A stretch of DNA of 58,430 bases, the filler included, from Dirinaria sp. TL-2023a (taxonomy: Eukaryota): NCBI GenBank assembly GCA_051941275.1. It is 8 parts of 8 records of this genome, joined end to end, with 100 filler letters (N's around TTAATTAATTAA, not from the genome) between each part and the next. Parts side by side here need not be neighbours in the genome. Positions count along the whole stretch, not along the records: positions 21,981 to 29,198 come from JAVEBF010001342.1; 7 more parts are not named here. The stretch is one strand, 5' to 3'. This document shows positions 14,561 through 51,225 of the stretch, one piece after another. Every line of letters begins with the position of its first letter. The stretch's first letter is position 1. Below the pieces are notes generated by a model. It was not told the origin of the DNA, did no database searches, and worked only from the letters and a program-made list of their open reading frames with translations. Made by a program: the position numbers and the translations under genes.

Positions 14561-14660
14561 NNNNNNNNNNNNNNNNNNNNNNNNNNNNNNNNNNNNNNNN
14601 NNNNTTAATTAATTAANNNNNNNNNNNNNNNNNNNNNNNNNNNNNNNNNNNNNNNNNNNN
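14561..14660. other. Artificial contig linker
   Basis: N44-TTAATTAATTAA-N44. Confidence 0.99.
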
Positions 14661-17726: not shown

Positions 17727-20700
17727 TCAGATCGGCGCCGGAGTGCCACACTTCGCGCACTGCATCCTGACAGCTCCTCGGCCGGCCATCGCCTTCCAAC
17801 TCCCCTCCCCGCACCGAGTACATTTCAGTTCTCCTCCACCTGGCGCATCGTCTGTCTTGACCAAGCTCTCCTCGCTGCTCAACGCGCTAGCGGTTGTGAT
17901 CTCCCGCTGCAGCGGCACTTCCAAACGATGATGATGTATACTATTTCCATCATCTGCGCTGCCGAAATCTTCGACACTGGTCCCTCCACTGTTGAGCGCG
18001 GAATGGTCGTCAAGATCGGTATCAAGGCTGTGTCCTCCGTTCGTTGCCGAGCGAAGTGGATGGGCCGCACGAGCGGCTTCTGCTTGCGACTTGTACAGTT
18101 CACGGTTCCAGAACATATAACTTTGGTCTCCTTTCAGCATCAACGGGTCTTGCTCGGCGACGAACTGAGTACCTGAATTGCTGTTTTGATGGGTCGAAGC
18201 GACAACATTGTAGGAACTGGAGAGTTTCGCTTCTTCATCGCTGCGCCGGGGGCTAGTAGGTGGGGAAGTGGCGGCTAGGGAGGGCGTGGTGGCTGCAGTG
18301 AGCGGGTGAGAGTTGTTGCCCTGGCGCAGCGTGTAAGTATTATTCGAACTGGACCTTAATGAGCCGGCTCCTAGTGATTTGCGGGGCGAGATACTCCGCC
18401 CGTGCGGCTGCGAGTTTTCAAAACTCCCGTTAGTAGATCCGATGCTTTGGCGCCAGCGATTGATGCGGTCAGTGGAGGGGTGATGATTGCTGGAGAGGGA
18501 TGTCCGACTGTTGCGTGTCGCAACCGAGTTACTCCGTCCAAGCATCTTCTTGCTGAAGCCAGTGTCGTTGCTGCGGAGGCGCTTTTGATACGCACAGTCC
18601 TGGCGGAAAACTTTTATATGGCCCATGTAGTCAGCTGTCACGATGATATTGCCACCAGGGTGTGTCGAGCGAGCGATATAGGCGGGTGATTCTTCGGGTT
18701 TGCTGACGCGGCGGAGTTCTGGGGTTGCAGGCGTGCCAGGTATGCTGGAGTCGGATAGTTTGTGATCGAGTTGACTGGGGGGTTTGGACGAGGAATGGGA
18801 TTCGCTTCGACTGATAAGCTTGACTGGAGGTGGGTTGCATAAGTCGTAAAGAGGGTCGCCAGAGGCACTAAGAAGCTGACGAGTTTTGCTGGGGGCGATG
18901 ATGGCAGCCGTGACAATCGCCGGGTGCGCTTCAAAAACTTCGACAGGTCGCCGATCTTTGTCAACTTCTGGCGAACCGGTAGACCAGATATACGCTTTTC
19001 GATCCTCGCTGCCACAGATTACGTATTTGGCATCCTCGCTGAAGGAGGCATGGATTTGAGAGCACGTGTTTTCGTTGCCTTTCAGTTTGACCTCCAAGCC
19101 TTTGTCTCTAAAATTATATATCCGTACTCGAGAGTCATTGCTTGTAATTAGGAGCTTTACATCGCCATTCGGATCATTGGGCGGATATGTAATGGCTTGT
19201 ATGCCGGTGACTTTGCTACCCTTGGCATTCTTCCCATGGGCAGAGCGGACATGGACTTGGGTCTGATACTTCAAACCTTCAGTCTCATAGAACAGGCAGA
19301 GTCCATTCAGACATCCTGCTATTGAGGTCTTGCCGTCGGGAGAAAACGCGACAGAAGTGATCAAGTCAGGAACTTGGACCCAGAAGGCGACGCTCTTGTC
19401 TGGAATGCTCCACAGGCGAAGTTTCGAGTCCAAAGAGCCAGCTAAGAAAAAGCGATCATCTTTCGGGTGGAACTGTATCGATGTTACGAAGTCATTATGC
19501 TTGAAGCAACATAGACACTCGTTTCTGCTGACGTGCCATAGCCGAACGGTTTTATCCATCGACGAAGAAAGGAGGAAATTGTTCTGTCGCTATTAGAATC
19601 GACCCAAACACCCAGTCTGATTACCAGCAGCAACATACCTTGCTCCATGCGATGTCCAGTATGCTTGCGGTATGTCCTCCATACTCCTGTATTGTTCTTC
19701 TCTTGAACACAGGCGCGCTCAGTCTCACACTGTGCCCTCCCTTTTCGGCTGCGTCCTCGGCTTTTTCGTGCTCAGCGCGATCCTCAGCTGTCGCAATCAC
19801 GGCCCAGACCCTGACAGCGTAGTCCTGGCCTCCAGCAGCTAGGTATCTGCCGTCCTTTGAGAACTCCATGGCCCAGACTGCATTCCCATCCTTCCTTGGG
19901 TCGCCGCTCTTGAAGCCTCCATTCTTGGCTAGTCGTCCACCGCTTTGTGCAAATTCAAGCCCAGTTTTACCCCTCAGCTCTTGTGCGAGAAAAAGCCTGT
20001 TGAATTCTCTCTCCTTCTTTCCGTGGCAGCGAACTTTGATGTACTTCGGTGGTGAGGGAAAGCGAGGTATGAAGCCGATGGGTTGAGAAAAGACATCCGC
20101 ATCCATACCTTCGGTTCTCTTGTCGCCCATATCCGATTCATCATCGAATGTCTCCAAGGCCGTATCCTTCTTCTTCGCAAAGCGGCTGAAGAACGATACT
20201 CGGTTTCTGGTCAAAAGTCAGCTCGCGGTCAATGCCATTTTCGGCTTTTTTGCCCGTCAATCCAATCAAAATGGTCTACCACACATCCAAGCACGAGCAC
20301 TCACCGTTTGTCCTTTGTGTTCGAGTCCGTAGACTCTGCTCTTGCTAGGGCTGGATCGAGGGATGTTCGAGCTGAAGTTGCAGAGTTTCCAAAATCGGGG
20401 GTTATCGAACGTTCATCAGAGGGTGTGGATGCGCGCGCTCGTTGTGGGAGCAAAATTTGTGTGTTTGTGCGACTAAGAATGTGCTGGATTGAAATATGCT
20501 GTCAGCTATTGTCGTTGTACGTCTGGGACTCGTGGATCAGGCGTACATTGGACAGTGGGTCAATTGCAGGCTGCTCTCTCTTGATCTCTGTGGATTCATG
20601 TGATGGCACACCAGGTGCAGTCTGGTAAGTCTTGTTCTGGGATTTGACTAATTTGGCGGGTCCTCGCGCTGGGTTCACGGTCAGCTAAGATCCACGTAAG

Positions 20701-21880: not shown

Positions 21881-21980
21881 NNNNNNNNNNNNNNNNNNNN
21901 NNNNNNNNNNNNNNNNNNNNNNNNTTAATTAATTAANNNNNNNNNNNNNNNNNNNNNNNNNNNNNNNNNNNNNNNNNNNN
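21881..21980. other. Artificial contig linker
   Basis: N44-TTAATTAATTAA-N44. Confidence 0.99.
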
Positions 21981-23023
21981 GGGGTGAGGGGAATTAAGAA
22001 TCAAAAGATGATATGGATTTTAAATGTCCATCGCATCGTATCGCTAGAACGGATAGGGCCGTATTCATGGTATTGGATTGGATATCTGAAAATCGGAATA
22101 TAAAGTACTCCCTCTCAACATCTTCTATCATTGATTCTTAATTTTCTCGCCGTTCCTCTTTTTTATCTCACTCAGTCTTTGAAAGCCCGATTTTATTTTT
22201 TCTCTCGTTTATCTATGACTTAAAAAGGGTGTTTGTGTTGCTACACTCAAGATAGAATTTGATGCGTGTTTCGGTGGATGTATATGGATGTATGTGGGGA
22301 TGGGGATGGAGATGGAGAAGAGGGGAAATAAATGCGTTGGGTTGGGTCGGTTTTAAGGAATATGGGATGTATAAGTAGGTACTAAGGGAGTATGGTGGGT
22401 GAGGGTGATAATCATCGCCTGAGTGGTCAATAAGTTCCCCGTACCATTGCCATCAGAAACCTGTTACTGCGTTGTATTCTTTTTTTTTTTTCTTTTTTTT
22501 TTTTTTTTGATTTGATAATTTCCAGTCTTGCCACAGCCGCTCTGTTAGACAGATCATGATAGCCTTCAAACACTTTATAGGTCAATTGAGACTTGGAAGT
22601 CAGGGATCGAACCTTGGTCGAAGTGAGTATCATGAAATACATCTGTTCTAAGTTGGAGTTTTTAAAAACAGTACGAGTCAACTGACACTAAGGCATGTTT
22701 CAGTGATAGTGTGCTTGCTCCCCCTCGTCCTAACCTATCTAAGGTATAATCTGGTGCACACTCAGGTGAGGGAGAGGGAGGGAGAACTTAGCCTACTATG
22801 TGCTCAACAATATTCAACGCATGCGGTTCAACGATGTTGTGCGACCACACTCTCCCAAACATCAAAATGAATCTAAACTCGCCAAGCAATCAATTTCGCT
22901 AACGCCCAGCTTAGCCAATGTCAGGACGGACAATCTCCGATTTGTAAAGGCACCCTTCTGATCCTCTTAACCGTGTTAAGATAATCAAGGACATGGATGC
23001 GCTGGTAGAGACTCCTCACACCT

Positions 23024-23892
23024 TCATTGTGGCCGCCCCTCCATCTTTGTCTCCGCTTCAACTTTCTCCTGCTGGTCTCCTGAAGAAAGGTATGCGTCAT
23101 TCGCATTCGCTACAGACTGTCGAGCGGATTTTTCTGCCTCAGCCTTGGAAGCATTTACCTCGGCTGATGTAGCGTGGCTGCCCCATCCGTTGGCAACTAG
23201 TTGTTCCGCTTGCGTTGCGGCCTTGCACCCGCTTGCGGTAATCTTGACGTGGTTTTGTCCACTCGATTGTGGCTCAGGATAAGCATTCGAGTTCGCCATC
23301 GCATTAGATATAGGCAATTTGTCCGAAGAGGGAATCTGAAAGCATATGTGATTAGAAATGCAGGCTCTTCTTTCTTCGCTAGGGGTTTCTTGATCCATAC
23401 TAATTGAGCCTTTTGATTTGGACGGCTGCTTGGTTGGGTCATTCGAGCTGGACGGCTGTTGAGGCACCGGCCTATGTGCTTGGTATCTTCCTGGACGTGG
23501 GTGACAAGGCTGTAAGTTCGCTCGGTGATATGCACTTGCAGAAGGCGAGTCTTGTCGTTCAACGCGCGAAACGTACTGTCGATTTCGTTGCTCTTACTGA
23601 CGACCCAGAACCAATGGTCGTACCAGATATCTTTCGGCCTCAGCAAATTTAGAAGCGAATTGACATCGCTTGCGGTGGCGATCAGAAGAGGGAAGATATC
23701 GTCGCTGTTGAGAGCCTCGTGGGTGCCGATGCGCCGAATTATTCCAAGGAGACAGCTGATGTTGGAGCGTTGTGTTTGATACAATGACGGGCCATCCTGT
23801 GCGGCTTTGTGCAATTTTAAGAGCCGCTGAGCTACCACCTGACTGTATGCAGCAAGCTGAGTTACGCTTGCAATCCCGCTTACAACATCCAT
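23024..23892 (-). CDS. HeLo-like/SesA-type helical domain protein with C-terminal two-repeat HET-s-like amyloid motif (267 aa); intron 23336-23400
   Basis: N-terminus MDVVSGIASVTQLAAYSQVVAQRLLKLHKAAQDGP resembles fungal STAND N-terminal/HeLo-like domains; a GTATGG...CTAAT...TTTCAG intron joins the two ORFs in frame; repeats ITASGCKAATQAEQLVAN and VNASKAEAEKSARQSVAN. Confidence 0.8.
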
Positions 23893-25448
23893 CTGGTGGA
23901 AGGTGGGGTTTGAGACGATAACGGCAATTGAGATGACAACACCAATTATTATTTATGTTGGGCACACTCTTGTTGCACTGATCAGGTAGCGATGCATATG
24001 ATCGATCAAGATGAGCCTGATCTTCGATTCCATAGGGTGCAGTGTGCAGCCAGGCGTTTTCAGGCTGCACGGAGATAGCAATAGCTCGACCTAATAAGCA
24101 AGTCCCCTACATTCTGGCTGGTGTTCTGGTCTTTGCTATCGCTATGAGAGTCTGAGGCAACCAGTCGCGTGCAATCTCATTCCGTAAAGCTCCAAACATG
24201 AATGGCTGTCTATCAGGAATTTGGTTTAGATAAGTAATGATAACTTAGAGTGTTTTCCCATTGAAAATATTGGATAAATTTGTATACAAGACTGTTGCAG
24301 TCCCAAGGTTGACTATGTCAGCATACGATGCAGCAATTAATGATCAGGATGTATTGTGGATAGTGGTGTTGTACAATTTGATCGCAGCAGAGAACGTTCT
24401 AGGAGCGAACTGACCAATATATGTGCTCGAGGCCTTGTATCAATACTTTCAACCCAAGGTTTGGCCGAAACACACTAGCCAGATACGGAATCTAAAGTAC
24501 GCCCCGCATGTACATTATGCATCTGTAGTCTATGCAGAGCGGGCGACAAGCGTGGACACACAGCGTGCAATAGGCTCACGTACTGTGCTTGTAAAACCAT
24601 TGAGTATGTGCAAGACGGCAATACCAGAGACTCTGTAGATCTAGACTGATTTCCCACAAGGACAAGTTGCGAAGATGAAAAGGCAAAGCAGCGATGTGTG
24701 ACGAGGTGCCCGATCAATATCTGAGCATTCATGAGATTGGTGCTAGAGACACATGCTTCCTTTGTTGAACATGAAAGCAGGATGATCAAGGTGAAATCGT
24801 GACTCGAGCTTTGTCTGTCATCTGTCATATCATCGCCAGCCCTGGACGAGATCGGCACTGTTGTCCGATTAGGACTAACTCCACAGTCTCTCTAATATAA
24901 AATGTCCTCCCTTATCTTGTCCCTACCCACTACAACTGCCGCGCAATTGCTCTGGTTTTTTGCAGATGAGTGAAGGTGAAATGCTGACTGATCGCAGTTT
25001 AGAAGAAAAATAGTATCGGCGGTTAGATACAGAAAAAGGGTTGCGCACACAAATTTGGTGAAGCGCTCTCGATTAAGTATCCGCCAAAAGATTATTATAT
25101 GCACCACTTACTTAGGGAGTCCAGAACAGTTCGAACACGACACGCGTCAAGCCTTGCTTCAAATTTCGGATCATCCAGTCAACCTCGCGTATCAGTCAGC
25201 GCCCGCGCCGACCTGTCAAAGGGGCAGTCCACCTGCATGTCAGAACCGAAATTTGATGTGCTAGTAGCCAGTTTCTCTTTGCCCCTCCAGCCAACCATAA
25301 GCAACCTGCCACCAGACGCCCCTAATGAGTCGCTCTCAGTTTCTTCACAGTCAAATATCCGGTGCGTCGCGAATGATGGTGCTTACTACAGCCCTTCCGA
25401 TTATGCAGTATGACACACTGAAAGCGTTTTCATTTGCAATCCTGAGTG

Positions 25449-26322
25449 ATGTCCTCGACGGTGAATGCGAATGAAAATGAAGCCGGGACAGCCTCGCAGC
25501 AAGCAGTGGGCAATCGGGACACCCAGATAGCCGGGGAAGGCTCCAATCAAGGAGTGGCCCCTCACTATCAGAACAACAACAACCATATGATCTTTTGCTT
25601 GGATAGAACCACCGCCATTGTTCTCTCTTTAGTTGCTCTTGTCATCGCTGGTGTAGTGCTTGGAGTGGTCTTTGGTCTGAGAGCTTCCAAAAGCAACAAT
25701 AGTGGGTCGCAGTAAGTACTTTTAACACACTCCAGGAACAAACCACATGATTAGTCGTCCTAGCATCATCAATACTACAGTCGCGTCGTCCCTTCCGTCC
25801 ACCACAGCGACTCCTACATCTAAAGCGAGCTGGATCACCTCATCATCCTTATCAATCCGGAGGACAAGTACAACAGTTTTACCTCCACCTCCCAGCCCTA
25901 CCGCAGATGGCGTACATCTGGTGAATTATGTTAATGGGACCGCCGTGGGGAGCGGATTTGCATATTACGCTTCCGCGGTACAAGGGAATAACGGAGCACA
26001 GCCGAATGACTATGCCGGTGCATCGGTAGATGTGGATACCAAGTGGGAGGGTCGAAACATTACAGGTGAGCTCTTATGTCACGGCGTGTGCTCCATAATG
26101 ACATGAGATTCCTATGTTCAGGCTGACTTGACTGCTGTAGGTTATTTTGCAGACACCAAAACCCTTTTCTGGGTCGACATTCATTCGACATCCGCTGCAG
26201 TGAATCAAGCTATCGGCATAGCAGGCAATGGGTACAGGACGTTTGATGTTTACAAAGATGATGGTCGGTTGCTATACAAAGAAGGCGGGGTAGATTTCTA
26301 CTCTATATGTTATTGCCAGTAG
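25449..26322 (+). CDS. Single-pass membrane protein: N-terminal amyloid-like motif, TM helix, Ser/Thr/Pro stalk, about 115-aa ectodomain; introns 25712-25754 (or -25763) and 26066-26140
   Basis: MSSTVNANENEAGTASQQAVGN; TM AIVLSLVALVIAGVVLGVVFGL; GTAAGT and GTGAGC donors join three ORFs in frame; ectodomain DGVHLVN...AYY...QPNDY...WEG...GYF...GIAGNGY...YKDDGRLLY...ICYCQ. Confidence 0.82.
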
Positions 26323-28352
26323 GAGAGGAATATGATGTTCGACATTCCAGCAAAAGTATAGCGAAGCTAGTTGACGTTAAACCTCGATAGGGGATCTCTG
26401 AATATCACGCATTCTTGAATACGATGATCCTTGGTGGAGAATCGCCTTACGATAGTAGCAAATAGGATGGGATGCAGATCTTCTCTCTGCTGTGACGCAT
26501 CCTACATACATACCTACCTTGACTGTTTTGTCGATATACATCGAGCTGCAGCGTCCCCAAAACCAAACGAGTGATAGTGCTTGCAGTCCTCGTACCCCTT
26601 ATTTCGCTATCCGCACTCCCCAGTGCTACATATATCGCAATCCTTGCCCCTTCCTTCCCCCAGACCCCCAAGACGAGAAAAACGGTAATATCACCGTATC
26701 TGGATAATGGGCTCAAAATATGGATAATAGCTTGAATGATAAAGGAACCATATAGAAGGATCGTCAATTAGGATTACTACCGTTATCTAATTTTCAAGGC
26801 CTTCCCAGCGCACATATTTAGAAACGCCATGATAAATACATTGGCTGAACAATTGTCGCAGAAAAATGAACTCTCTCCATACGCTTCATGGTTCCTTTTC
26901 ATGCATCTCAAGGCATGTCATCGCAGTATCAAAGTAACGGAGAGGCCTCCATGGACACCGAGTCCGTCCTATCCGTCATTGACATCAGTTTCTCTTCCTG
27001 ATTCTACAACATCTTCTTTTCGAATTCATTCAATCCTCATACTTCGTCATCGAATTATATGACTGATAATTTCCATTGCCAAAAGCACCTTATTTGAAGA
27101 CTCTCCTGTTAGCGCTCCAGTCACCTTACCTAGTTAGTATTAGTCAGGATTGGTGGTCAGATGGTTCCATAGGCGACGGTTAAGGTAGGTAAGGTAGGTG
27201 ATCCGGAGCCCTTCCTAGAATCATCATAGCCTTCCGTTATTATTTCCAACAACTCCATGCGGCAAACGATGGCACTTGAAAGCGGTTGTTTCGAGAGTTT
27301 CAAAATGAAGCGGCTTTGGCAGTCGGTTCTGTCCTTCATGACATCTACGATCTAATATAGGAGTAAGATTACGTTAATCTCTTCGAAAGACGTTGTGATA
27401 TGGATGCAGTTGTATCGGCCCATATGAAATGAGGTTCATCTGATGTCAAAAAGGACCCTTTCCGGAGAAATGGATGAGGACGAGAAAGGGTTATATGATT
27501 AGAGCCAAATTCCTGCAGTTGTTTGTGAGTCTGTCTATCATCATCATGTTTCCGATCGCAAGCTAGGTGCGAGATCCTCCAATTGCCCATAGATATATGA
27601 CCAAAAATTTCTGCAAACCCGAAGTCCTTCGTCTCTCCCTTCGCTAACGTGTTCGTGCTCATATGGAACTCTCAAAGGGTTGTTGGCAGTGCTTTCTCTC
27701 GTTTCCTTGCGAAAACAGTCTAGTCGATGGTTAGTCAGCAGAGGGGTTCAAAGCACTTTGCTTCCATGCTTTTTACCACCTAAGTACCTTACCTTGGGCC
27801 TCAAACCACTACCTTACTGCAATAGCTAGCTTTCTCACCGTTGCTACTCTAAGAAAGCTTCTCAGGCAGATGAGGAGTTCACGTCTCTCTATGACATCAT
27901 AAGCTATAGCGGTTCAGTATGACCCTGCATATCCCATGCATCTCCTGCAAAACTCCCGTGGACTATGCGTGGGGAAACAACTTTAAGTTACAGCAACACG
28001 AGCTAAGCCGATCCTACACCTTACTCATCTGGGAGTCGGCAGATGGGTGCCAGGTTAGACAACCTCGGAGCTGAAAGAGCAAACCGCAACTCCCCATTCC
28101 AGAAGCGTACCTGGCAAGCGAACATGCAGGCTCGTATGAGACTATTGTGTTCCTGTGGCTTCGGCCTAGATCGCAGAGAATAGAGGAGAAAGCAAGCTAT
28201 ACCGACATCATATCCGCGACCTGTGGACTAAGGTATATAAGTATGGATGTGATCGAGAAGTTTTTTTTTTTTTTTTATTCTCAAAGAACGAACATCCTGA
28301 TCCCAGAGACCTACCAACCAAATCCTGAACTCTCCTCACATACTCTCCCAAA

Positions 28353-28749
28353 ATGCGTCTTCCGATCCTGGCTCTCCCTCTCCTCTCTTTAACCCTGGCC
28401 GCCCCCCTCTCCTCGCGCCAATTCACCGCCCAACTCACCTTCCAAGGCGCAAGCCTCAAGGACGGCTACGGCCTCTCCGTTCCCGGAAACGGGATCGTCG
28501 TCCCCATAAGTCCGTCTTTCCTTCTCCTGCCCCCCAAAAGCTTCTCTACATGCCAGCTTGGGTACCGATGATCTGACAATACTACGTATAGAGAACCCAC
28601 TCAGTGTATCATACATTTCTCTCGGAGGCGGAGCGACGTGTACCGCTTTTGGCGCCGACGGGAGCCAGACCACGCTTTCGGGTTCTACGTTCATGAAGCC
28701 CGTCGGCCCGCCACAGAGGCAGATCAGTGTGACCTGTTCTCAGATATAG
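28353..28749 (+). CDS. Small secreted protein (about 104 aa, 2 Cys); intron 28510-28591
   Basis: Signal peptide MRLPILALPLLSLTLAAP; spliced to NPLSVSYISLGGGATCTAFGADGS...VGPPQRQISVTC. Confidence 0.8.
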
Positions 28750-29198
28750 AGGAGAAAGCTCATGAAGAATATATCTTTATCTAAAAAAAAAAAAAATTCT
28801 CTCCCGAAGATGGGATTTTAATAAATATGTTCCTCGTAAATAGTCTTTGATCTAACTCGATATCTTATCTTCGATCAATTTTCAAATCATGACTTTTACA
28901 GTGCACAAAGGGAATTATCTCTCCGCAAATCAAATCCCCACCCAGTTCTCATGAATCGCCTTTCTAATAATTTTTTACAGAAAAGGCTTCTTTCCTTCGT
29001 AGGCAGAGCAGATGATATCAACACTGATCCACATAAAACATCATAATGTCTATCATCATCCCCCATTTCTTCCTTTCCTAAGTGCACATGATCCTGATTG
29101 GATTCATTGACATACTTAACCCCCCAAAAGGAGTAAACCAAAAACGAAAAATGAATCAAATCATCTAGCTCTACGCTACCCTACCCCTTACCTAGAAC

Positions 29199-29298
29199 NN
29201 NNNNNNNNNNNNNNNNNNNNNNNNNNNNNNNNNNNNNNNNNNTTAATTAATTAANNNNNNNNNNNNNNNNNNNNNNNNNNNNNNNNNNNNNNNNNNNN
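29199..29298. other. Artificial contig linker
   Basis: N44-TTAATTAATTAA-N44. Confidence 0.99.
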
Positions 29299-30415: not shown

Positions 30416-32321
30416 TGTGGAAGCGGCGTGTAAGCTTGGTTCTGTGCCAGAATGAAGGATGTGGATGTTATTGGCGCAAGTAATAGCTGTATTCATAGTC
30501 CACAAATATCCACGCGAAGCCATGATACAAGGCAAGCAGAAATGGATTTTCGGATCAAAGGAGAGAAACGAGCATGATTAATGCTGATCCGTGCGGCTGA
30601 AAGCGGAATGCTCATTTTCTCCTGACCACTACGAGACTTGGTCAGGAGCTTATTCAAGATACTCAGATAGGAGGATACAGTCTGACTCGCTAACGGAGAG
30701 CTCGGCCGGAACAAACGGTTCACATCCGTGAAGCGTCAAGCAGGACTGTACCATGCAAATTCAAATCCAAATCATCCATCAACCGTCCTAAGCTGGTTTG
30801 TGGATATGAAAAACGTTGAAGACCAAGCCATGTGCCAGGCGCGAGCATCCAAACTCTCGACTTCCGCTTGCGCTACTCACTTCAGGAGCTCCACGCGGTG
30901 GAATTAGGCTAAAGGAGATTTACGCTTACCTCTTGGTCGACTCGGAAGCTGACATCGGATGGAGCTGCGATATGTGCGTGGTCCGCGAGAACGCAACATG
31001 CCTCTCTGAAATCTGAAAGACAGAGGAGTCCGGAACAAGGCATATTCGACAACGGCTGACGCTAAGCCCGGAACCGAAGGGATATCAATCGCCTTCACAA
31101 CGGAGAAACCAGTAACAAATATTCGGACCCGTGGCTTGTTTGAGTTCTGGTACTGATTGACATCATCGGCGGATACCTGACGCCTGAACGGAAAACCTTG
31201 GCACAGTAAGGCAAGTACTCGCTACGCTACCTACCTTGCAGTACTCCGATACCTTTCAAGTATCGATAAGAAACGCCAATGGGGCATGAATTATGTTCTC
31301 CGGGGTGGTTGTAATCGGGATTTTGGCCCTAGACTCTGATGTGATGGTATGCAGCCATTGAGAGTTTGTCATTAGATATCTTCAATCAATCAACCTCGAA
31401 CCTACATGACCGTCGGAATGGCGGCAAGGTCAAGCCATACTTTGCTGTAGTGTTCGGTGAATTGCGCAATACCTCAAAGCCAAGAAGCCGAGATAAGGGT
31501 ACGATACCTTAACCCTTGGGATAATGGAACCGCTGAGAGTGGGGATAGGTATAATGGAGAGGATGAAAGTTATTTTTTGACCCATTCGACCGCGTAGATG
31601 ATGCATAATAATAATAAAAATACTTGGCATGTAAGACACTACACCACCTGGTCTGCTCAAACAAGGCAAGAAGTACTGGTGTCCAAGTATTCGGTATTCC
31701 TTGTCGTCATCCAATGCTGTGAAGGATCGACAGCACAGCCACATCTCAGACAGGGTCCCGGCAAGCACACGCATGTTGCATCTGCACGATTGGCATATCG
31801 CACCAATTATCGACAACCTCGAAAGTGGGAAAACGCGCGGCGCGATGGTTGAATTGCTGGCGGGGACTAGTGACGCCACAGTTGTGTTTACGGCTGCGGG
31901 AACCAACCACCGAGATTGGGTGAATCCCACATAAAGTCACTCCCTACCCTCCATCTCCTGGCACATATCGTTTCTCGGTTCTTTTGTCCCGCTGTCTCGT
32001 TCGGTCATTCCTTCAATTGTCCTGATGCGATTGCCGTGAATTTTCCGAACGTTCGTTGAGGGTCACTCGATACGGCTGCGATATGTTTATCTAATGGATT
32101 GTTTATATCACTTCAGAAGCCATTCCTCGGACAACCTAAGCACTACTCACCATCTCCACTAAATACCCATCGTCTGGGATCCAGTTGAAATATGCGTGAA
32201 TAGGCTTCTACTGGTATTTACATATCTCAGTATTCTCGTGTTGCATCCGGCCCTTCATCCAATCTCGATACTATCAAACACGCCAAACAATATTTGGAAA
32301 GAGTAGAAGTCACCGAAAATC

Positions 32322-35300
32322 ATGGGTGGTAAAATATGGTCTGGGTGCGAAGCGCCTACCCAACGACTTAGCAAGCCAAAGACAAACACGTCTTCCTCCA
32401 ATCTCCAATCTTTGACCTCCCAGCGATCCGAGCCCTCCACTCCAGTCTCACCCATCCATGGCTCAATGTTCGACGAGGATCCGGTGGTCACGTCTCAGAC
32501 AGGAGATCGAAGGAGTCGACAGAAATCGCGTTCAAAGATCAGGACCTTTCTGCATGGTTCCGGAAACGAAACGGCAGCAGCACAGTCATCCGACGAAGAC
32601 GACAACGGCCAACAAGGGCTTGTCAGTGGAATCAGGAAACGCTTGTCGAGAGGGAGTTCGTATTCATCCCAGTATACCCACAGGAGACAGTCTTCGGCTC
32701 CACTGTCAAATAAGTCCAGCTCTGCGTTGTTGCTCGATGATAGTGGATCTGCCCGAACCGAGCACAAGATCAAGGAGAAGGAATATATGGACAGGGCAGC
32801 AGCCCAAGCTCATGTATCTCTGCCTATCGATGCAGACAAACGTCCCCGTCGAATTAAAGCTCCAATACGACGACGCTCACTGTACACTCCCGGGCTTGCT
32901 ACCCGTACACCTCACGATATGCTGCGAAGGCCGCCTCCTCCTGATCGCTGTGACTGGGAGGCAGAGCGTCAATACTACTTCAATCCTGATCGACCGCGAT
33001 CGTCACCATTGTCAGAGCTTGCCGCACTTGCGGAGTCACGGAGTGCTGCGCTAGCGTTGTCCGAAGGTGGCCGATCTACTCCCGTAGGTTTTAGCCAGCT
33101 GGGTGGGCTTGGATTGGGAACACTGCGTATTACCAACGGCGCTGCCTCTCCTGAGCCTAGTATTGCCTCCAAACCATTGTCCGATTGTGCAAGCCACGAC
33201 GAATATTTTACAGCTTCCGAAGGTTGCAAGAGCGACGATGAAGCACAATCAATCTATAGTAGAGCTGTGAATGAGACTCCTCGGCCACGCAAAAGAGCTG
33301 ACAGTCCTCTCAAATTCGAAAGTTGTAGGAGTGACTCTACCAGCGAACCAGTATTCATACCAAGAGCCTCGGAACCCCTGCCGGACCCGAAATATCATTT
33401 CTATCCTGAGAACGGTCTTCACCAGCGGAAATCTGACACAGAGTCAATGGTTATCTCGCAATCGCCAACGAGTTCTTATAGTATTGCGCAGGAATACATG
33501 TCTGAGCTACCGCCAAGCCCATACGCCCGAGCAAGGTCAAAACAGCCCTCTTCAGGCCACCCGCGTACCCAAGACACTGATGCGCGGCCCGGGAATGACT
33601 CCTGTGTTGACAAGATGCCGTACAGGGTCAGTCGCAATAGCTGTTGTTTCCAGGACGAAGGCGTTGATGTTACAGAAGCACATTCTTCCGATCGCGGCAG
33701 TTGGCGAAATCTAATCAACGGTGCCGAAGGGGTCCAAGCCAGCAGCCGAACGAAAGAGGACGCATATCGTATTCTCAACGGTGATATATTACCAAGAGGA
33801 TCGACTGCTAAGAAGTCGTGCTGTTTCGACTTGGCTCCCGGTGACCGAGAGGTTGAAGACCGACGCGAGTCGTCCTCTACCACAACAACGACCAATACTA
33901 CGCCCTCAGTATCTGGAACCACTAAGCTACAAACCATCAGCAATTGGAGGACAAGCGCAGGAAAGAACGATAGCGGTTACAGTTCTTCCAACGCTTCACT
34001 CGCAAGAACCGGAGATGGGTCCGACGTCAACGGCCCTCAACCGGCAAATCTTAGGGATTTTCTAACAGACCATCGCTCGATTTCTGGTTCTAGAGACATG
34101 CTACAGCAATCATTACGCGGCCTTGAGGCTTATCCGGCAAGCCAACAGGAACCGGCGACTCTTGCTCGGCCATCCCTTACTGTAGTTCCGCGTCCTGCAA
34201 CGACAGTCATAACTACAACCACAACCACTACATCATCCCCAACTCCTCGACGTCAGCATACTGCTCCTACCACATCGACCTCATCAGCGTTGCCTATCAA
34301 TGATGGTGGGCAGTCTCGTCAAGTACCACAGGTCAAGCCGACTGTCGAAACATCTTGCCGATATCCTATTACTCCGCCATTGACGGAGAAGCGGGTCCAA
34401 AGGCCTGTCCCTATTAGTCCAGTGCTCCCCTTCAAGCCCCGCAAGCTACACAAACCACAAAGGCTTTCCAGCACAGCACCGGCAGATCAGCTCGCTGCTG
34501 AGCAATTGCGCAGCATGACAGAAGTCGATATCCCTCCAATCCCACCCGCAGTTGCCTCGAAGCACGCTGAAAGGCTTCGAGACTTTCCTTCCTTGGAGCA
34601 CACATATCCAAGTCTACATCATACCAACTCTAACACTTGCCGATCACCCAGTCCTGCATTTACCAATTTTGTCCCAATCAGATTTCCATCTCCGGCGAAT
34701 TCGATGGAAGATAGGAGTGATGCCATAGTGAACAGCGATTTAGGTTGGCCAACCACAGCGTCAAAGAAGAAGGCCAAAGAACTTAAAGAACAATCCAAGC
34801 GTTCGTCAAAAGGAGCCCGCCGCCAAAGCCAGCCAGATCCAACGGTGTCAATAGCCGACTTTGGTGATGTCGGAGAATCCATAGGCAAAAGCGTCTACGA
34901 TGTTGCCAGAGCTCCTGTCGATTCAATGAAAGATAGAAGCGACGCTATCGTGAACGGTAATTTGGATTGGCCGACTAAAGAGTCGAAGAAGAAGGCTAAA
35001 GAACTTAAAGAGCAATCCAGGCGTTCGTCACAAGCAGACCGCCGCAAAAGTCAATCAGACCCTAGAGGTTCAATCGCTGACTTAGGTGATGATGGAGACC
35101 TTCTCGGTAAAAGCGTCTGCGATGTTGTCAGAGCCCCTGTCGATCAAATTTCGCAATCTGGCAACTCAAATGAGCAAAAGACCAAGGGCATTCCCAGACC
35201 TCAGACTCCAGGCTGTGAAAGACCATTTGAGTCCAGGCATGCTAGCACCGGAAAGCCTCGACCTCAGAGCATGTTTGTGGAGACGGCTCATGGCTCGCCT

Positions 35301-36509
35301 CTAGATGATTTCGGTAGTTTCAAAGCGCAGTACAGCGGCGGGCGTCCACAAAATAACCTTCCTACTCGCAGTTCGTATTCCAATACACCACCAGTACCGC
35401 TCTTACCATCAGCTAGTGAGGCAAGAGAGCTAGAGCGAGGGGCACGAAGGAATCGCCGAAGCGAGGGTCCAAGAGTTCCAGAAGGGTCGCTTTCCGGCGA
35501 TCTACGTCAAACAGTAGCTCCAAATGAGCCTTTGACAAAGCTTGTTCGACCGCAAAGCATGTACGAGGTTGATATAGAGGCTATGAGAAACCACATGCAA
35601 CGTGGGCGATCCTACAACATATCCATAAATGCTCCTAGGCCCAATGAAGCTTTGGATGCATCTCAGCCATCTGGACCGCAGAACGATATTCCACAAAGAC
35701 AGCGCGGACGTACTGAAACTGCCATACATCATGCTGTGGACAAAGATCGTTCTGTTAGACCTCAGACTACTTCTACGTATGTGGAAGCTCCACCAGCTCT
35801 TCCTCCTCTGCCTCCTGCTGGTGATCTTGATCAGTGGCTTAGACACTATGTGCGCAACGAGAACCAGTCCCAATCTGATGTTTTTCAAAGCAACAGCGAG
35901 TCAGACTCGCCAGTATCTGCTTCGACTGCTTCCGATCATTGTGAGGCTCATCGATTCTCCACGGGAATCTCGGATGGTGTGCGAGTGTCCAACAAGCTGC
36001 AGAAGAAGCGGCCAGTATCTACTCAGCCAGACATCTGGAAAAGCGATTCACTCAAAGAAGAGCTCAACAAACGCCGGACTGAAGAAAGAACTGGCAGTGA
36101 GGAAGGCTCAGAGAACTTTGAGATAGCATCTCCTCCCAGTGGTATCTACGACTCGAATGGCCTCAGTGTAGGCGAGATTGCTCGGCCAGTCGCCGCGCCT
36201 TCTCTCCATGATGCACTACGAGCTCACAAAGAGAAAATGTCTCACTCACCCTTTGGGTCTCCATCGCACAGCGGCCAGCAAACGCCTTTGGAACCAAGCC
36301 CGTATCTTATCCAATCAAAAACAGCTTCAGCTGTCCAACAACTCCGGAACCATTTCCAGAAGACAATACCAGCAGACCAGCCTCCCGAGCCTACTCGCAG
36401 AGCCCCTCGATCGCCTCCCAAGCCGCAGACCGAGTCCCAGCGGCCGGCCACATCAGCGCCACAGACGCCAAGGAAGGGCAGTCAAAATACCTCCCCAGAC
36501 TCAACCCCC
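32322..36509 (+). CDS. Large Ser/Pro/Arg-rich, probably disordered hypothetical protein (about 1396 aa to the contig end, 3' truncated)
   Basis: 4.2-kb uninterrupted ORF with short conserved-looking islands RRRSLYTPGLATR, LGGLGLGTLRITNGAASPEPS, DSGYSS, IADFGDVGESIGKSVYD. Confidence 0.85.
34701..35144 (+). repeat. Tandem 222-nt (74-aa) intragenic duplication
   Basis: SM(E/K)DRSDAIVN...WPT...SKKKAKELKEQS...SIAD.GD...GKSV.DV.RAPVD twice, starting at 34701 and 34923. Confidence 0.92.
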
Positions 36510-36609
36510 NNNNNNNNNNNNNNNNNNNNNNNNNNNNNNNNNNNNNNNNNNNNTTAATTAATTAANNNNNNNNNNNNNNNNNNNNNNNNNNNNNNNNNNN
36601 NNNNNNNNN
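36510..36609. other. Artificial contig linker
   Basis: N44-TTAATTAATTAA-N44. Confidence 0.99.
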
Positions 36610-43819: not shown

Positions 43820-43919
43820 NNNNNNNNNNNNNNNNNNNNNNNNNNNNNNNNNNNNNNNNNNNNTTAATTAATTAANNNNNNNNNNNNNNNNNNNNNNNNN
43901 NNNNNNNNNNNNNNNNNNN
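43820..43919. other. Artificial contig linker
   Basis: N44-TTAATTAATTAA-N44. Confidence 0.99.
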
Positions 43920-46471: not shown

Positions 46472-49400
46472 TCAATACGGACCGGGGTCGAAACCGAACC
46501 AATCCTGCGATCTTCCAGCTTGGTATGCTTGGCTCAGCATCATTACATCCACGCCGTTCATCGTTAGGATCGGATCCTGAGCCAGAATCGGGTCAATGGG
46601 GCCTAAACGACTATCCGTCTGCACATCCAGTGGAAACGAATTGTCACCATGAGCCATGAAGTCCATAGGTTCCCAGATATCAGGATCGAAGCCTCGAGGA
46701 TCTTTTGACATATGCTCCGGCCAGGGTTGGAAAGAAGGCATGAAATTGGGGGACTGATGCTCCAGCGGCGCAGTCATGATGTCGTCTGTTGAACCGCCGA
46801 TTCTCGGTGCTACAAGCCTGAGAAGGCGGCTTAATTGGTCCCACGAAATTCGCGCAGCGCTACTCGTGGATGCCATCGACAGAAGCCAATTCATCCCCTT
46901 CTTTGCATCTTTCAGCATCTCTTCTGCCTCAGAAGGCATGTGTTTTGCTCGGAATGACATCTCAAGCATCAGCACAGTAACAGCACGTTTGATGTAGTAG
47001 GTAAGGGTCCACCATACTGGGCTCTGACGGATTGACTGAGGATTAGGCTCTGTGGGTAGTAAGGCGAGGACAGCCCGCGCTGAAGAAACGCAAAGACTAG
47101 CGTTGTCGTGATCCGCGTTGACAGATGACTCTGATTGGTGCGGTACAAGCCGGTCTCTGCTGCAGAGCGAGGGCCGATTGATAATCGTTCTCAAGCTGTT
47201 TGAAAGGATAGCGAGTGCCACCTTGAAGGATTCAACGCGAGGGTCTTTCGATGGAATGGTACTATTGAGCGCTGCAGGAAGTGTCATGTGCCATTGCGAG
47301 AGTTGCGCATTCAAGTTTGACACTCGAGCCTGAATCGCCGACCATTTCTCAAGTCGAATGTCCGGACTATAGAGGCTCTCTAGGACCCTTTGACCCAGAG
47401 CATTAAGTTCTAGGTAATAGAAGAAAAAGGTCGTGGTGATCGACTCGCTTGCCTTGTCGTATGGTCGGGGCCCGCACGTACTGGAAGAATGCGTTGATGT
47501 AGTCGAACTTGCCGGACGAGTTTGATGGCCGGCTGGAGACAACGTCTGCGAGCTTGTAGAGATGCCTTCCAGAGCGCCTTCGTCGGGTAGTGAAGGGGGG
47601 AGGGGTACTGGAGCACTGCAGTCTGTCGATTTGACCATTGCCGGCCGTCCGGTCACCAGACACAAGGTGCGTTCAAGCGAAACTATGGCGTACCACATTC
47701 TCACCCGAGTGAGCTTGTCCTCTTCCTTCAGCCCTTGGAGGTGGTTCTCTAAATGCATTCCTAGAGCTTGGGCACTGCGGATAGCTAGTCCAAGAACATT
47801 CCATGCTCTAAATTACCCCATCAGTAAAGACGAAGGGGCCCACTTGATAAAACCTACCGGTTGAGTTGATGGGTTGCAAGAAAATACATGGCTGACAATC
47901 CAAATGTCTCTATTTGGGCAGCGTACACTCGGTCTTCAAACAGCCCTGACTCAGTACCAAGGGACCGCGCCCGTGCAAAAAACAGGAGGTGATCCCGGTC
48001 ATGGCCTGCCCACTCGGCATGAGTAAGGTGAGCGTGGATGGCTCCTATAGCAAGGACTAATTGCAGAACAGGCACAAAAATTCTGAATCGAGACTCTGTG
48101 CGAGGTTCAACGCTGGCCACGTACTGCGAGTATTCATCCAAGAAAACATTTTGATCGAGGACCGGAAAAGACGGATGAATCGTTGCAAAGTAGATATCGA
48201 TGAGGGTATCGGTGGTTGGCTTGATAGGCAGGCCGTAAGGATCGATCTGATCCTCAGCGAATGAGTTGTCTATATCATATAGATATTCGTCTGGCTTACT
48301 CGTGTCTAAGCCGGCATGGTGGAGATCTGTTGGATTGATCTGTGTAGATTCTTGATTATTCCGCTGCTCGAACTTAGATATAGACTCCATTGGTTTCTTC
48401 GTGAGATTCGTTGTCAGCTTTTGCATCCATTGTAGATCAGAGGCTTGGCCTAGAAAGGGTTGTTCGCCTTCTGCGGAAACTGAATGCTGGAGATTGTCCG
48501 CATTCACATGATCAGTTGACCCCATCGAGCCGACACCTGAAGCTACAGACTCGCCGCCACTGTCGCTACCATGGTCAATTGCCGTACTTTGCCCGATTCT
48601 TTTTGATATCGAATCTTCTTTATGCTCAACTTCTGGAGGCTAAGGCTCGTTAGTGTTCGCTATGCCGATTCCTGTCCTACAGATTGTACACACCATCAGA
48701 AGCGCACGCTGTACAGCCGATTGCTGATCTTGGGAGAGATCAGAAACATTACGTAAAAGTAAGTTTTCGTACGCCGTGACCTTTTTCAAGAGTTGTTCAG
48801 TGAGCCTATGGTCCATTAGCAAAATGACTGTTTCATGTCTTGCCCTATCCATACTTCTTCTCTTTGCTCTTTTTTCCGTCCTCGTAATGGCACTCCATGT
48901 CTAAATCGCGGCAGTGTTTGCATGTAGGGCGCTCGCCGTTGCACTTCGACTTCCGAGATCTACAAGGCTCGCATGCCTGACTTACACGCGCGTTTCGATT
49001 TGTTGGGTTATTAGGGCTTACTACTGAAGGCCTGACACGGCTGATGGGTACACCAGTCTCCCGCCTTTTCGCACTCACACCCAAGCCTTCGACGTAGTTC
49101 ACGGAATTATCTGTAGTTCTGAAAGTTTGGCCGGGTAGAAGGCCTTCCTTGGATCGAGCATTCTGCGGCAGAGATGCACCAGAACTTCGTGAATCTTTCT
49201 CATCGTTTGAGTCAGGGGACGACGCGTGTTTGCTTTGTGCCTTGATGGCGACTTTTCTATTAGCTGGTGCCGTTTCAAATGCCTCCAGATATTTTGCGTA
49301 GTTGACGTAATTTTCAGTTTTCTTGTATGCCACCATTTCCTGCTTGTATTTCTCCCATGGTACTGCAGCTTTCTGCTTCCAAGAATCTTTGTCTGCCGGC

Positions 49401-49861
49401 GACATCGCCTGCCATCTCTCGCCTACCTGTCGCGATATATCGATGAAAGGTAGCGACTGGTCTTTCACCTCCTCGCGGACATGGTTCGAGAACAGGACAT
49501 AAGCAGAGTAGGGCCGTTGCGGAGCATTTTCGTCGGGTTTTGGACGGTGCCGGTATCCTCGCTTTCCGGAAGATTCCACTCGGGGTTCATTTTTCGACGA
49601 GATTGATGACGACGCTGGGTATGCCGAGTCGGAGACCGACTTGTTGATCGGAGACACGATTGGTGTGTCTCGCGCCAGCCGGCGCGTGTTTGCGATCTCT
49701 CTTTGGAGCTTTTCCTGATGGACCTCTTCCACATTCAAGGCGTTCAAATCTGCTTCGGTGATCTCGAGCAGCGTTTCCCATGAGTCAAAGCCGGCTTGAA
49801 CGAAGCGATCGTGGTATTGAGAGATGCCGAGCCAAGCCAGCGTTATCTCCAGATCAGCCAT
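46472..49861 (-). CDS. Multi-domain transcription factor: SAM, HMG box, Zn(II)2Cys6 and Fungal_trans domains (4 exons)
   Basis: LGISQYHDRFVQAGFDSWETLLEITEADLNALNV (SAM); PKPDENAPQRPYSAYVLF...VGERWQ (HMG); ACEPCRSRKSKCNGERPTCKHCRDLDMECHY; YFATIHPSFPVLD; RMWYAIVSLERTLCLVTGRP. Confidence 0.88.
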
Positions 49862-51125
49862 GTCAGCGACGCAGTTTGGCAAATTTTGGCTCCGACTCAG
49901 TCACTGCCAGAATGGTCTGCTCTCGCTCAATCGCTTCACACGGTTTCGCGCCTCTTATCAGATGTGGGGCTGGCAGAGCACCGAGCCTCGATGAAAGTTA
50001 TGCATAGAGACAAATGCCATAAGCTAAATACTGCGACCTGCGGAGCAATATGATTCGGGCAGCCGCAGGCTGACGATAGTTTAATGATAGTCTGCTATTT
50101 GAACTGTGTATCGGAGACTGATTGGTGCAACGTAAGAGCATTTGTCGCTGTCGCGTCCTCCTGTAATGGATTAGACGATAGTTTCCTGCAGATTTCCTTA
50201 GAGAAATCATAGGCTGGAGGGAGCCGTGACCAATCACATTCGACAGATACGAACGATGCCGGTGGTATGCGTATGGTAAGGTAAGGCTGCATTACCAGGG
50301 TTGGTATGCATCTTACCCTACACAGTATGGCTTGTACTACCATAGATTTCAGGGTCGCCCGCCTGGAAGGGAGGAAGGCTGAGCTCGGAGGTTGCTCCGG
50401 GGCACCCTTTACCTTTACATGAGGTAAAGCTTTGGGATTTTGTTCAGATACGGTAATGTACCTACCTTACCTTACTGTAGGTATTATTAGTATCGCGCAA
50501 CTGTTTTTAGAGCACAATAGACTGTCCGATGCTATTGCAGAAAAGTACTCCAATCGAGCGAAACAGAAATCCTATAAGCATGAAAATACTCCGGATTCAA
50601 ATCCAAGTGTTCTTTGGTAGCATCACAGTACGTTGAATCCAGCTCCTATCATTTGGAATAGCCAAATTACAGCCGAGCATTGTGTCGAGTCCAGCTGAAA
50701 GGCACCGGAGTCGAGGGAGTACACTGGAGGATAGATAGAAGTACTATGATACCTGATGTTTCCGACTTGGCGTCCTATTCTTGCCCTTTGGTTGCCATTT
50801 CCCTTGTTTCAACAGTGGTATGCGAACATCGAGTCTACTACTGTGCAGCGTGGTGTAGAGACTCTGTAGCTAGAGCGGGACAGATGTCCGAGGGGGCCCC
50901 TCGGGCCCCCTCGGCCGTTTGGTCACAGCAAAGAAGCGAGAAATGAATGATTGGCCGTCGGCTGGACGGAGAGAAGCGTCCGAACCAATTGCCATTTCCA
51001 ACAATCGCATCCCTCAGATCTTATCGTAATTCGGACGGATCTCCGGCACCTCAGATTTCTTGCCATCAGTGTCTGCAGCACTCGCCCGGCGTTGGTATTT
51101 CCCTGTTATCGAGGAGGGGTTTCGT

Positions 51126-51225
51126 NNNNNNNNNNNNNNNNNNNNNNNNNNNNNNNNNNNNNNNNNNNNTTAATTAATTAANNNNNNNNNNNNNNNNNNN
51201 NNNNNNNNNNNNNNNNNNNNNNNNN
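51126..51225. other. Artificial contig linker
   Basis: N44-TTAATTAATTAA-N44. Confidence 0.99.

Follow-up and report, generated by a model that had tools for sequence, protein, structure and literature searches.

The closest described relatives of the system reported here are the fungal HET-S/NWD2 pair and the HRAM pairs. According to the available portion of PMC4518210, a short helical executioner in these systems ends in two pseudo-repeats, and a divergently transcribed neighbour carries one copy of the same motif at its extreme N-terminus. A gene pair of this layout lies in a 58,430-nucleotide stretch of DNA, made of eight joined parts and referred to here as the window, from the lichen-forming Lecanoromycete Dirinaria sp. 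TL-2023a (assembly GCA_051941275.1). The left gene of the pair encodes a short protein with a predicted helical N-terminal domain and two C-terminal repeats (r1 and r2), and the right gene encodes a small, predicted single-pass membrane protein in which the motif occurs once, at the start (r0). It is read here as an HRAM-like amyloid-signalling pair in which a membrane protein, probably of type II and not a NOD-like receptor (NLR), supplies the template repeat as the trigger. The probability of this reading is put at roughly one half.

The accessible text of PMC4518210 defines HRAM effectors as HeLo-related proteins of fewer than 310 amino acids, with two repeats of approximately 21 residues within roughly the final 80 positions and an inter-repeat loop of 6-18 residues. 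Within the motif, the Gly at position 19, which forms the beta-arch, is perfectly conserved. Positions 5, 8, 10, 16 and 18 are hydrophobic, positions 3 and 20 are large and polar, and position 15 is Arg or Lys. The Pfam family PF11558 matches only 38 of the 155 HRAM proteins in that text. The r0 motifs are typically nearer to r2 and carry fewer charges (Daskalov et al. 2015, accessible text of PMC4518210).

In the accessible parts of the literature searched, NLRs and their effectors are the only carriers described for the amyloid signalling motifs of fungi and bacteria. No fungal transmembrane or other non-NLR carrier of such a motif was found in that search, although cases could exist in subscription papers or in the supplementary files of PMC4518210 and PMC9815663. 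The initial annotation of this DNA had stated that characterised fungal cases use NLRs as sensors. This agrees with the literature searched and is to be confined to fungi, as membrane receptors with cytosolic amyloid motifs are already known from animals. PGRP-LC and PGRP-LE carry a cytosolic cRHIM, and aggregation of the receptor is thought to nucleate an Imd amyloid (available portions of PMC9496462 and PMC13506858). The shrimp membrane receptor SRB2 is described as acting likewise with IMD (available portions of PMC10268257 and PMC13506858). In the mammalian RIPK1/RIPK3 RHIM necrosome, surface receptors lead to an amyloid step and from there to the four-helix-bundle executioner MLKL (available portion of PMC12881547).

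A motif common to the two proteins

One basis of the reading is the likeness between r0 and the repeats encoded by the adjacent gene. The three units are positioned as follows.

23186..23251, minus strand: repeat r1, residues 193-214 of the left protein; repeat hidden Markov model (HMM) match at 1e-10; AlphaFold2 (AF2) strands 193-199, 202-203 and 206-213
23102..23167, minus strand: repeat r2, residues 221-242 of the left protein; repeat HMM match at 9e-9; AF2 strands 221-227, 230-231 and 234-241
25455..25517, plus strand: r0, a single motif copy, residues 3-23 of the right protein; identified with the left-repeat HMM and by shuffles

Aligned without gaps, r0 and r2 are identical at 8 of 18 positions and reach a BLOSUM62 score of 39, a value attained in two of 2000 composition-preserving shuffles of the right N-terminus. 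An HMM built from the left-family repeats only was run against the six-frame translation of the window (1436 open reading frames (ORFs), 80,035 amino acids). It returned r1 at an E-value of 1.3e-9, r2 at 1.9e-7 and r0 at 6.7e-5, with the next best match at 2.1. A widened repeat profile gave 3.6e-5 for r0 versus 1.4 for the next best segment of the same window. The initial annotation had quoted both left repeats, the N-terminal motif of the right protein and the 8/18 match between r0 and r2. All are present as quoted, and the sharing of a single copy with the neighbouring gene is significant by both measures. The right N-terminus cannot be extended because an in-frame TGA lies two codons upstream (5') of the ATG. 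As in HRAM pairs, r0 is nearer to r2 than to r1, and is less charged.

The left-repeat HMM also matches the N-terminus of an orthologue of the right protein from Teloschistes flavicans (P0018, partial) at 12.1 bits. This protein keeps 12 of the 18 r0 positions, compared with an identity of 43% overall, and its linker between r0 and the helix is approximately 20 residues shorter and not conserved in sequence. The motif is thus retained in another order of lichen fungi. An r0 is also present in a relative of the Dirinaria strain known from RNA.

The r0 segments of both right proteins were scored against 127 left-family tails, with the N-terminal domains serving as a control (maximum score 27). 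The best matches were r2 units of other members of the left family, namely that of P0027 (10/21 identical, score 53) and that of P0026 (9/21, scores 46-48). Because of the profile hit, the conservation in the orthologue and these cross-family r2 matches, the motif is, as judged from sequence, common to the left and right families beyond a local coincidence. Co-folding of the left tail (residues 185-267) with residues 1-50 of the right protein gave a score of 0.02, which speaks neither way.

The two-repeat tail of the left protein

The left protein (P0006) is 267 amino acids long and its tail consists of two 22-residue pseudo-repeats separated by a 6-residue loop (residues 215-220). In size, repeat number and loop length it agrees with the HRAM definition, and the adjacent gene supplies the single N-terminal copy, the carrier here being a non-NLR protein. 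Both repeats end in Q-x-V-A-N (..LVAN in r1 and ..SVAN in r2). Under manual numbering with the arch residue as reference, A5, C/A8, A10, V18 and N20 loosely fit the HRAM pattern, and position 16 is Gln, as in the HRAM5 subclass of PMC4518210 (in its available portion). Position 3 is V/I and not N/Q/H, and Arg at position 15 occurs in r2 only.

The AF2 model of the left protein assigns the tail two identical rungs of 7+2+8 strand residues, 28 residues apart and coincident with r1 and r2, at a predicted local distance difference test (pLDDT) score of 73-77. The repeats could stack as a two-rung beta-solenoid; the rungs were taken from the AF2 strand assignment. The paralogue P0011 has the same two units, as do P0007, P0026 and further relatives. 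Of 80 scanned family proteins with at least 200 amino acids, the tail HMM picks out 9, and inspection of tails by eye suggests more. In P0007, residues 181-201 form a possible third pseudo-repeat before r1 (A-N-x-N...Q-I-I-S-N), with 8/21 identity to r0. Certain members of the left family may therefore have three rungs.

The N-terminal domain of the left protein

The AF2 model was built from 116 sequences and has a mean pLDDT of 76.3 over the left protein. It replaced a first run on 11 sequences (pLDDT 53), for which the fold search had returned generic bundles only. The N-terminal domain comprises approximately 145 residues, with helices predicted at 3-32, 36-58, 66-84, 90-99 and 101-145 (pLDDT 83-96) and the strongest conservation in the first helix. 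As modelled, an all-helical domain with a conserved first helix resembles the SesA/HeLo-like (HELL) domains, the MLKL four-helix bundle (4HB) and the RPW8/CC-R domains.

Searched against 1.84 billion representatives, a profile of the left family recovered 220 clusters (E<=1e-3). The best 150 of these 220 clusters are 97-384 amino acids in length, apart from one ankyrin-repeat protein of 1600 amino acids, and none is an NLR fusion. Weak Pfam matches (E<0.01) were obtained for 7 of 148 family representatives, with four to SesA (PF17107) and four to PF17111 (the former Helo_like_N). The sole representative above the SesA cut-off is P0146 (27.4 vs 26.3 bits), and the left-family profile matches this protein in the same region at an E-value of 3.9e-9. 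The domain is likely a distant branch of the SesA/HeLo-like superfamily that Pfam does not cover, the link to Pfam being a transitive one. Searches of PDB sequences with the left profiles and with the left tail returned nothing below an E-value of 0.1.

The right protein as a membrane protein

The right protein (P0017) has 248 amino acids, and differs from NWD2 in being a small single-pass membrane protein without NACHT/NB-ARC domain or repeats. Its membrane segment is the following.

25608..25679, plus strand: predicted transmembrane helix, residues 54-77 of the right protein, by Kyte-Doolittle hydropathy

The 19-residue Kyte-Doolittle maximum is 3.07 in this segment, compared with 0.87 at best elsewhere in the protein, and the N-terminus has no signal-like segment. 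Past the helix, Ser, Thr and Pro make up 49-51% of the residues (0.49 over the next 70 residues of the right protein), and this stalk is followed by a conserved domain of approximately 120 residues that belongs to no known family. An N-x-T sequon at N186 is invariant in all six homologues, and two further sequons are kept in 4/6 and 4/5 homologues. On the N side of the helix there are juxtamembrane cysteines, C50 in P0017 and C34/C35 in the Teloschistes protein. Owing to the Ser/Thr/Pro-rich stalk, the sequons and the position of the cysteines, a type II topology (N-in, C-out) is favoured and is the probable one. The 120-residue outer domain is probably N-glycosylated.

Homologues of the right protein were found in Teloschistes and Lecanora helva, and as four fragments; all are proteins of lichen fungi or metagenomes. 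A PDB sequence search with the right profile gave nothing below an E-value of 0.1, and a Pfam search of all five exons of the pair, 11 left relatives and 6 right relatives gave no relevant family. No NACHT/NB-ARC match was obtained for the right protein, for any of its exons or for any long ORF of the window, and the Walker A motif is absent from all 124 window ORFs of at least 100 amino acids. In these points the initial annotation is supported: an NLR domain is lacking, the transmembrane helix is single, and the part beyond it consists of the stalk and the conserved domain.

Gene models and RNA support

Both genes lie in one unbroken stretch of the window (21981-29198). They are divergent, with 1557 bp from ATG to ATG, which agrees with the 1.56 kb estimated initially. 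The gene models are identical to those of NCBI, where the pair is named as hypothetical proteins Q9191_006944 and Q9191_006945 of the Dirinaria sp. metagenome-assembled genome (MAG). The remaining features of the locus are listed below.

23024..23335, minus strand: left gene exon 2, residues 165-267 and stop; disordered linker, then the two-repeat tail
23336..23400, minus strand: left gene intron, 65 nt, GTATGG...CTAAT branch site...CAG; RNA join in frame
23401..23892, minus strand: left gene exon 1, encoding residues 1-164 with the predicted all-helical N-terminal domain; translation and NCBI model P0006
23893..25448, no strand: intergenic region, 1556 bp, holding both 5' untranslated regions (UTRs) and the presumed shared promoter
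25449..25711, plus strand: right gene exon 1; RNA joint 25711/25764; NCBI model
25712..25763, plus strand: right gene intron 1, 52 nt
25764..26065, plus strand: right gene exon 2, coding for the stalk rich in Ser, Thr and Pro and for half of the conserved C-terminal domain (the first); RNA joints
26066..26140, plus strand: right gene intron 2, 75 nt
26141..26322, plus strand: right gene exon 3, coding for the remaining half of this domain, with the stop; RNA joint

A single lichen metatranscriptome sample, represented by three RNA-seq runs, contains RNA contigs that cover both genes at 90-96% identity to the stretch. Because of this level of identity, the contigs are assigned to a relative, a different strain, and not to the sequenced strain itself. 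The RNA joint 25711/25764 excises right intron 1 exactly. The joint 26063/26139 (GT..AG) becomes 26065/26141 once the cut is shifted by +2, and thus right intron 2 is also excised exactly. At the left gene, the joint 23327/23404, with 14 letters between, removes the intron in frame and leaves one additional codon at the junction. Since the contigs are spliced at the predicted introns, both gene models, with all three introns, are confirmed by RNA. Both genes are transcribed and spliced in a second organism of the same sample; the contigs are silent on adjacency.

Within the intergenic region, RNA covers 23908-24186 and 25115-25448, with no cover at 24187-25005. In one contig from the relative, 58 bases (GT..AG) between 25056 and 25115 are missing from the 5' UTR upstream of the right coding sequence, where an intron is possible. 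The start codon of the right gene is overlapped by a short ORF that begins further upstream (25325-25474).

Proposed mechanism

The topology, the amyloid formation, the direction of signalling and the cell-death outcome are inferred, and are set out here as a proposal. The pair matches the NLR paradigm because there is one motif copy at the extreme N-terminus of one protein and two copies in the C-terminal tail of the other. It would form a two-gene module of the HET-S/NWD2 type, with a single-pass membrane glycoprotein in place of the NLR. The left protein would be a short executioner whose four- or five-helix bundle, of the SesA/HeLo-like/MLKL kind, stays inactive as long as its tail is unfolded. 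Residues 1-53 of the right protein, including r0, would be cytosolic, with the stalk and the glycosylated domain outside. Clustering of the ectodomain through a ligand, wall damage or cell contact would gather copies of r0, which would stack and then template r1 and r2 of the left protein. The HRAM-like repeats would in turn stack into a two-rung beta-solenoid. The folded tail would free the N-terminal helix of the bundle, and the membrane would be attacked at the site of the receptor.

In its fullest form, this would be a death-receptor-like path of lichen fungi, in which a surface glycoprotein nucleates the amyloid of an MLKL-like executioner encoded by the adjacent gene, without an NLR or a kinase. 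This further step is possible but tentative. It shares with the PGRP-LC/Imd and SRB2/IMD systems, as far as the available text on these extends, a membrane receptor with a short motif on the cytosolic side, the side here being predicted. Those systems differ in that they are animal, use a cRHIM, and have NF-kB output rather than death, with an adaptor downstream. Moreover, PGRP-LC and SRB2 have no sequence relationship to the right protein, and the animal genes are not adjacent. In the mammalian necrosome, a kinase and a phosphorylation step are placed between amyloid and MLKL (available portion of PMC12881547), whereas the motif is here fused to the bundle. In the proposed pair, unlike the necrosome, the receptor itself would bear the template.

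What would be new here is the fungal membrane carrier, the principle being already known from animals. If the proposal is true, the pair would bring a cell-surface sensor into fungal amyloid signalling for the first time, and would be the fungal equivalent of PGRP-LC/Imd, linked directly to a pore-former. It would connect fungal surface sensing with regulated cell death, and its stimulus may come from the photobiont, from competitors or from damage to the wall. With the template borne by a protein anchored in the membrane, the prion-like relay would also prove to be a general adaptor, comparable to death domains and fit for other sensors. The lichen origin points to a control of cell death in a symbiosis that is hard to study genetically, and two small genes with a motif of 18-22 residues provide a minimal testable system.

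Evidence against the reading and alternative explanations

A number of observations weigh against an HRAM-like pair triggered from the membrane. The HeLo-like/SesA match that the initial annotation had expected from Pfam for the left protein did not appear; neither the protein nor any of its 10 close relatives has a Pfam match at E<=10, and none of HeLo, PF17111, SesA (PF17107) and PF11558 matches the left protein of the window. A Foldseek search with the left model gave no match at E<=1e-3, with Rx-CC, the CC-R domain of NRG1.1 and the MLKL executioner domain among those listed. With VIA-align, MLKL (4btf) ranks fourth (Z 11.5, root-mean-square deviation 2.2 over 96 residues), followed by Rx-CC (Z 10.7), MLKL 6ux8 (Z 10.5), NRG1.1 CC-R (Z 9.5) and MLA13 (Z 8.5), but values of Z below about 13 carry the warning that they are common among helical bundles. 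Designed bundles top the comparison at Z 12.0, and the fold match of the model to MLKL and RPW8 is within the range of generic helical bundles. In both respects, the absence of a direct Pfam match and fold scores no higher than those of designed bundles, the domain is unlike the SesA/HeLo-like domains. The assignment made at first sight is thus retained in its transitive form, through the weak matches of 7 of 148 representatives and the one above the cut-off, and not in its direct form.

In the right protein P0017, one Lys or Arg residue flanks the helix on the N side and two flank it on the C side; P0018 has one on each side. By the positive-inside rule, these charges are neutral towards an N-in orientation or speak slightly against it. 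The adjacency of the two genes is known from this genome alone, the Teloschistes contig ending within the gene. A scan of metagenome contigs of the Joint Genome Institute (JGI) with the left and right family alignments gave pattern matches, none of them to a relative.

The alternative that survives best accepts a real amyloid motif but makes the membrane protein a downstream anchor, docking site or co-effector, with an unlinked NLR bearing its own r0 as the trigger of both proteins. The NLR search covered the 58-kb window, and an NLR with the same motif may be encoded elsewhere in the genome. For 57 of the 155 HRAM proteins, the gene next door is something other than the NLR (accessible text of PMC4518210), and clusters of three components with one common motif exist, as in HELLP/SBP/PNT1 (accessible text of PMC7885112). 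Likewise, the r2 of the neighbouring gene scores 38 with r0, below the foreign r2 units of P0027 and P0026. No claim of partner-specific co-variation is made here, since r0 is closer to two foreign r2 units than to that of its own neighbour. The known co-effectors, of the SesB/SBP type, carry their motif at the C-terminus. In the Dirinaria pair, the single copy is found at the extreme N-terminus, as in a receptor; the window holds no gene recognised as an NLR or by Walker A; and the extracellular-type stalk and conserved domain point to sensing over execution. On this balance, a downstream role for the membrane protein is unlikely.

A further alternative takes the common segment as an interaction or regulatory motif rather than an activating amyloid template. 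The r0 copy may cap or sequester the tail of the effector as a brake, or the segment may have a non-amyloid use. Negative regulators of the Pirk type that carry a cRHIM are described for the Imd pathway in the available portion of PMC9496462. The initial annotation had likened the left repeats to those of HET-s; a likeness to HRAMs stands for the two-repeat architecture but not for the arch. Both r1 and r2 have Ala at position 19, where the invariant HRAM Gly is missing, and Val or Ile at position 3, which sets them apart from the HRAMs of the available text. In addition, position 8 of r0 is a non-hydrophobic Asn, the repeat cores are of the Ala/Val type and poor in bulky hydrophobics, and PF11558 (HET-s_218-289) has no match at E<=10 on the left tail.

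The r0 segment also changes quickly among close relatives. Between the window and the RNA relative, right exon 1 has 10 listed substitutions and at most one more. Seven of the 10 fall within codons 6-23 and three in the other 69 codons. The changes in codons 6-23 are N6D, one synonymous change, E9G, A15G, G21A and R23Q (two bases), such that the arch Gly of r0 is Ala in the relative, the residue found in the left repeats of the window. In the left gene, the divergence from the relative is 34/379 bases in exon 2 and 21/516 in exon 1. This divergence of the motif, as far as the sequences go, is compatible with concerted diversification and with relaxed constraint alike. The regulatory alternative has to be set against the two equal strand rungs that AF2 assigns to r1 and r2 (pLDDT 73-77), and against an architecture that corresponds feature for feature to that of HRAM effectors in the accessible text of PMC4518210. 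The arch Gly is present in r0 itself and in several family members (P0027, P0028, P0037 r2), and some left-family relatives combine it with classical Q-x-hydrophobic-G-N endings. A purely regulatory or non-amyloid motif is considered rather improbable.

Chance likeness of two low-complexity, Ala/Asn/Gln-rich segments in unrelated adjoining genes, which the shortness of the motif, its mere 8/18 identity and the biased composition of both segments might suggest, is already disfavoured and very improbable in view of the composition-keeping shuffles, the independent profile with nothing else in the window below an E-value of 1, the Teloschistes orthologue that keeps r0 but not the adjoining linker, and the 9-10/21 identities of r0 to the r2 of other members.

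Neighbouring genes and other features of the window

Three further candidates in the window were considered as NLRs and rejected. A WD40 gene at 17727..20217 (minus strand) could have been the C-terminus of an NLR; its blades are N-terminal and no NOD domain lies upstream. In its product, a long stretch rich in Ser comes after the propeller, and the C-terminus is rich in Cys (CxxC...CxxC). The ORFs at 7991..11566 and 32307..36509 have neither a Pfam match nor a Walker A motif. The former (7991-11566, minus strand) is an open frame of 1192 amino acids, rich in Thr, Pro, Gly and Asn, with more than 25 tandem units of 9-10 residues (GTPPPGTNT-like) at its start, and its product is probably mucin-like and either secreted or located in the wall. 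The latter (32307-36509, plus strand) is an open frame of 1401 amino acids cut by an N run, and has no Pfam match even at E<=1.

Successive open frames on the minus strand at 46472-49900 contain SAM, HMG-box, Zn2Cys6 and Fungal_trans domains. If these form one gene, it would encode an unusual SAM-HMG-zinc-cluster transcription factor. Paired runs of 44 N, with 12 bases between the two members of each pair, are found at 7235-7334, 14561-14660, 21881-21980, 29199-29298, 36510-36609, 43820-43919 and 51126-51225. The seven pairs are spaced 7306-7326 bases apart, and the longest contig given by the protein database for both genes of the pair, 7218, is as long as the stretch from one such pair to the next. 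The runs have the appearance of regular masking or tiling rather than of natural assembly gaps, and long ORFs are cut at these points.

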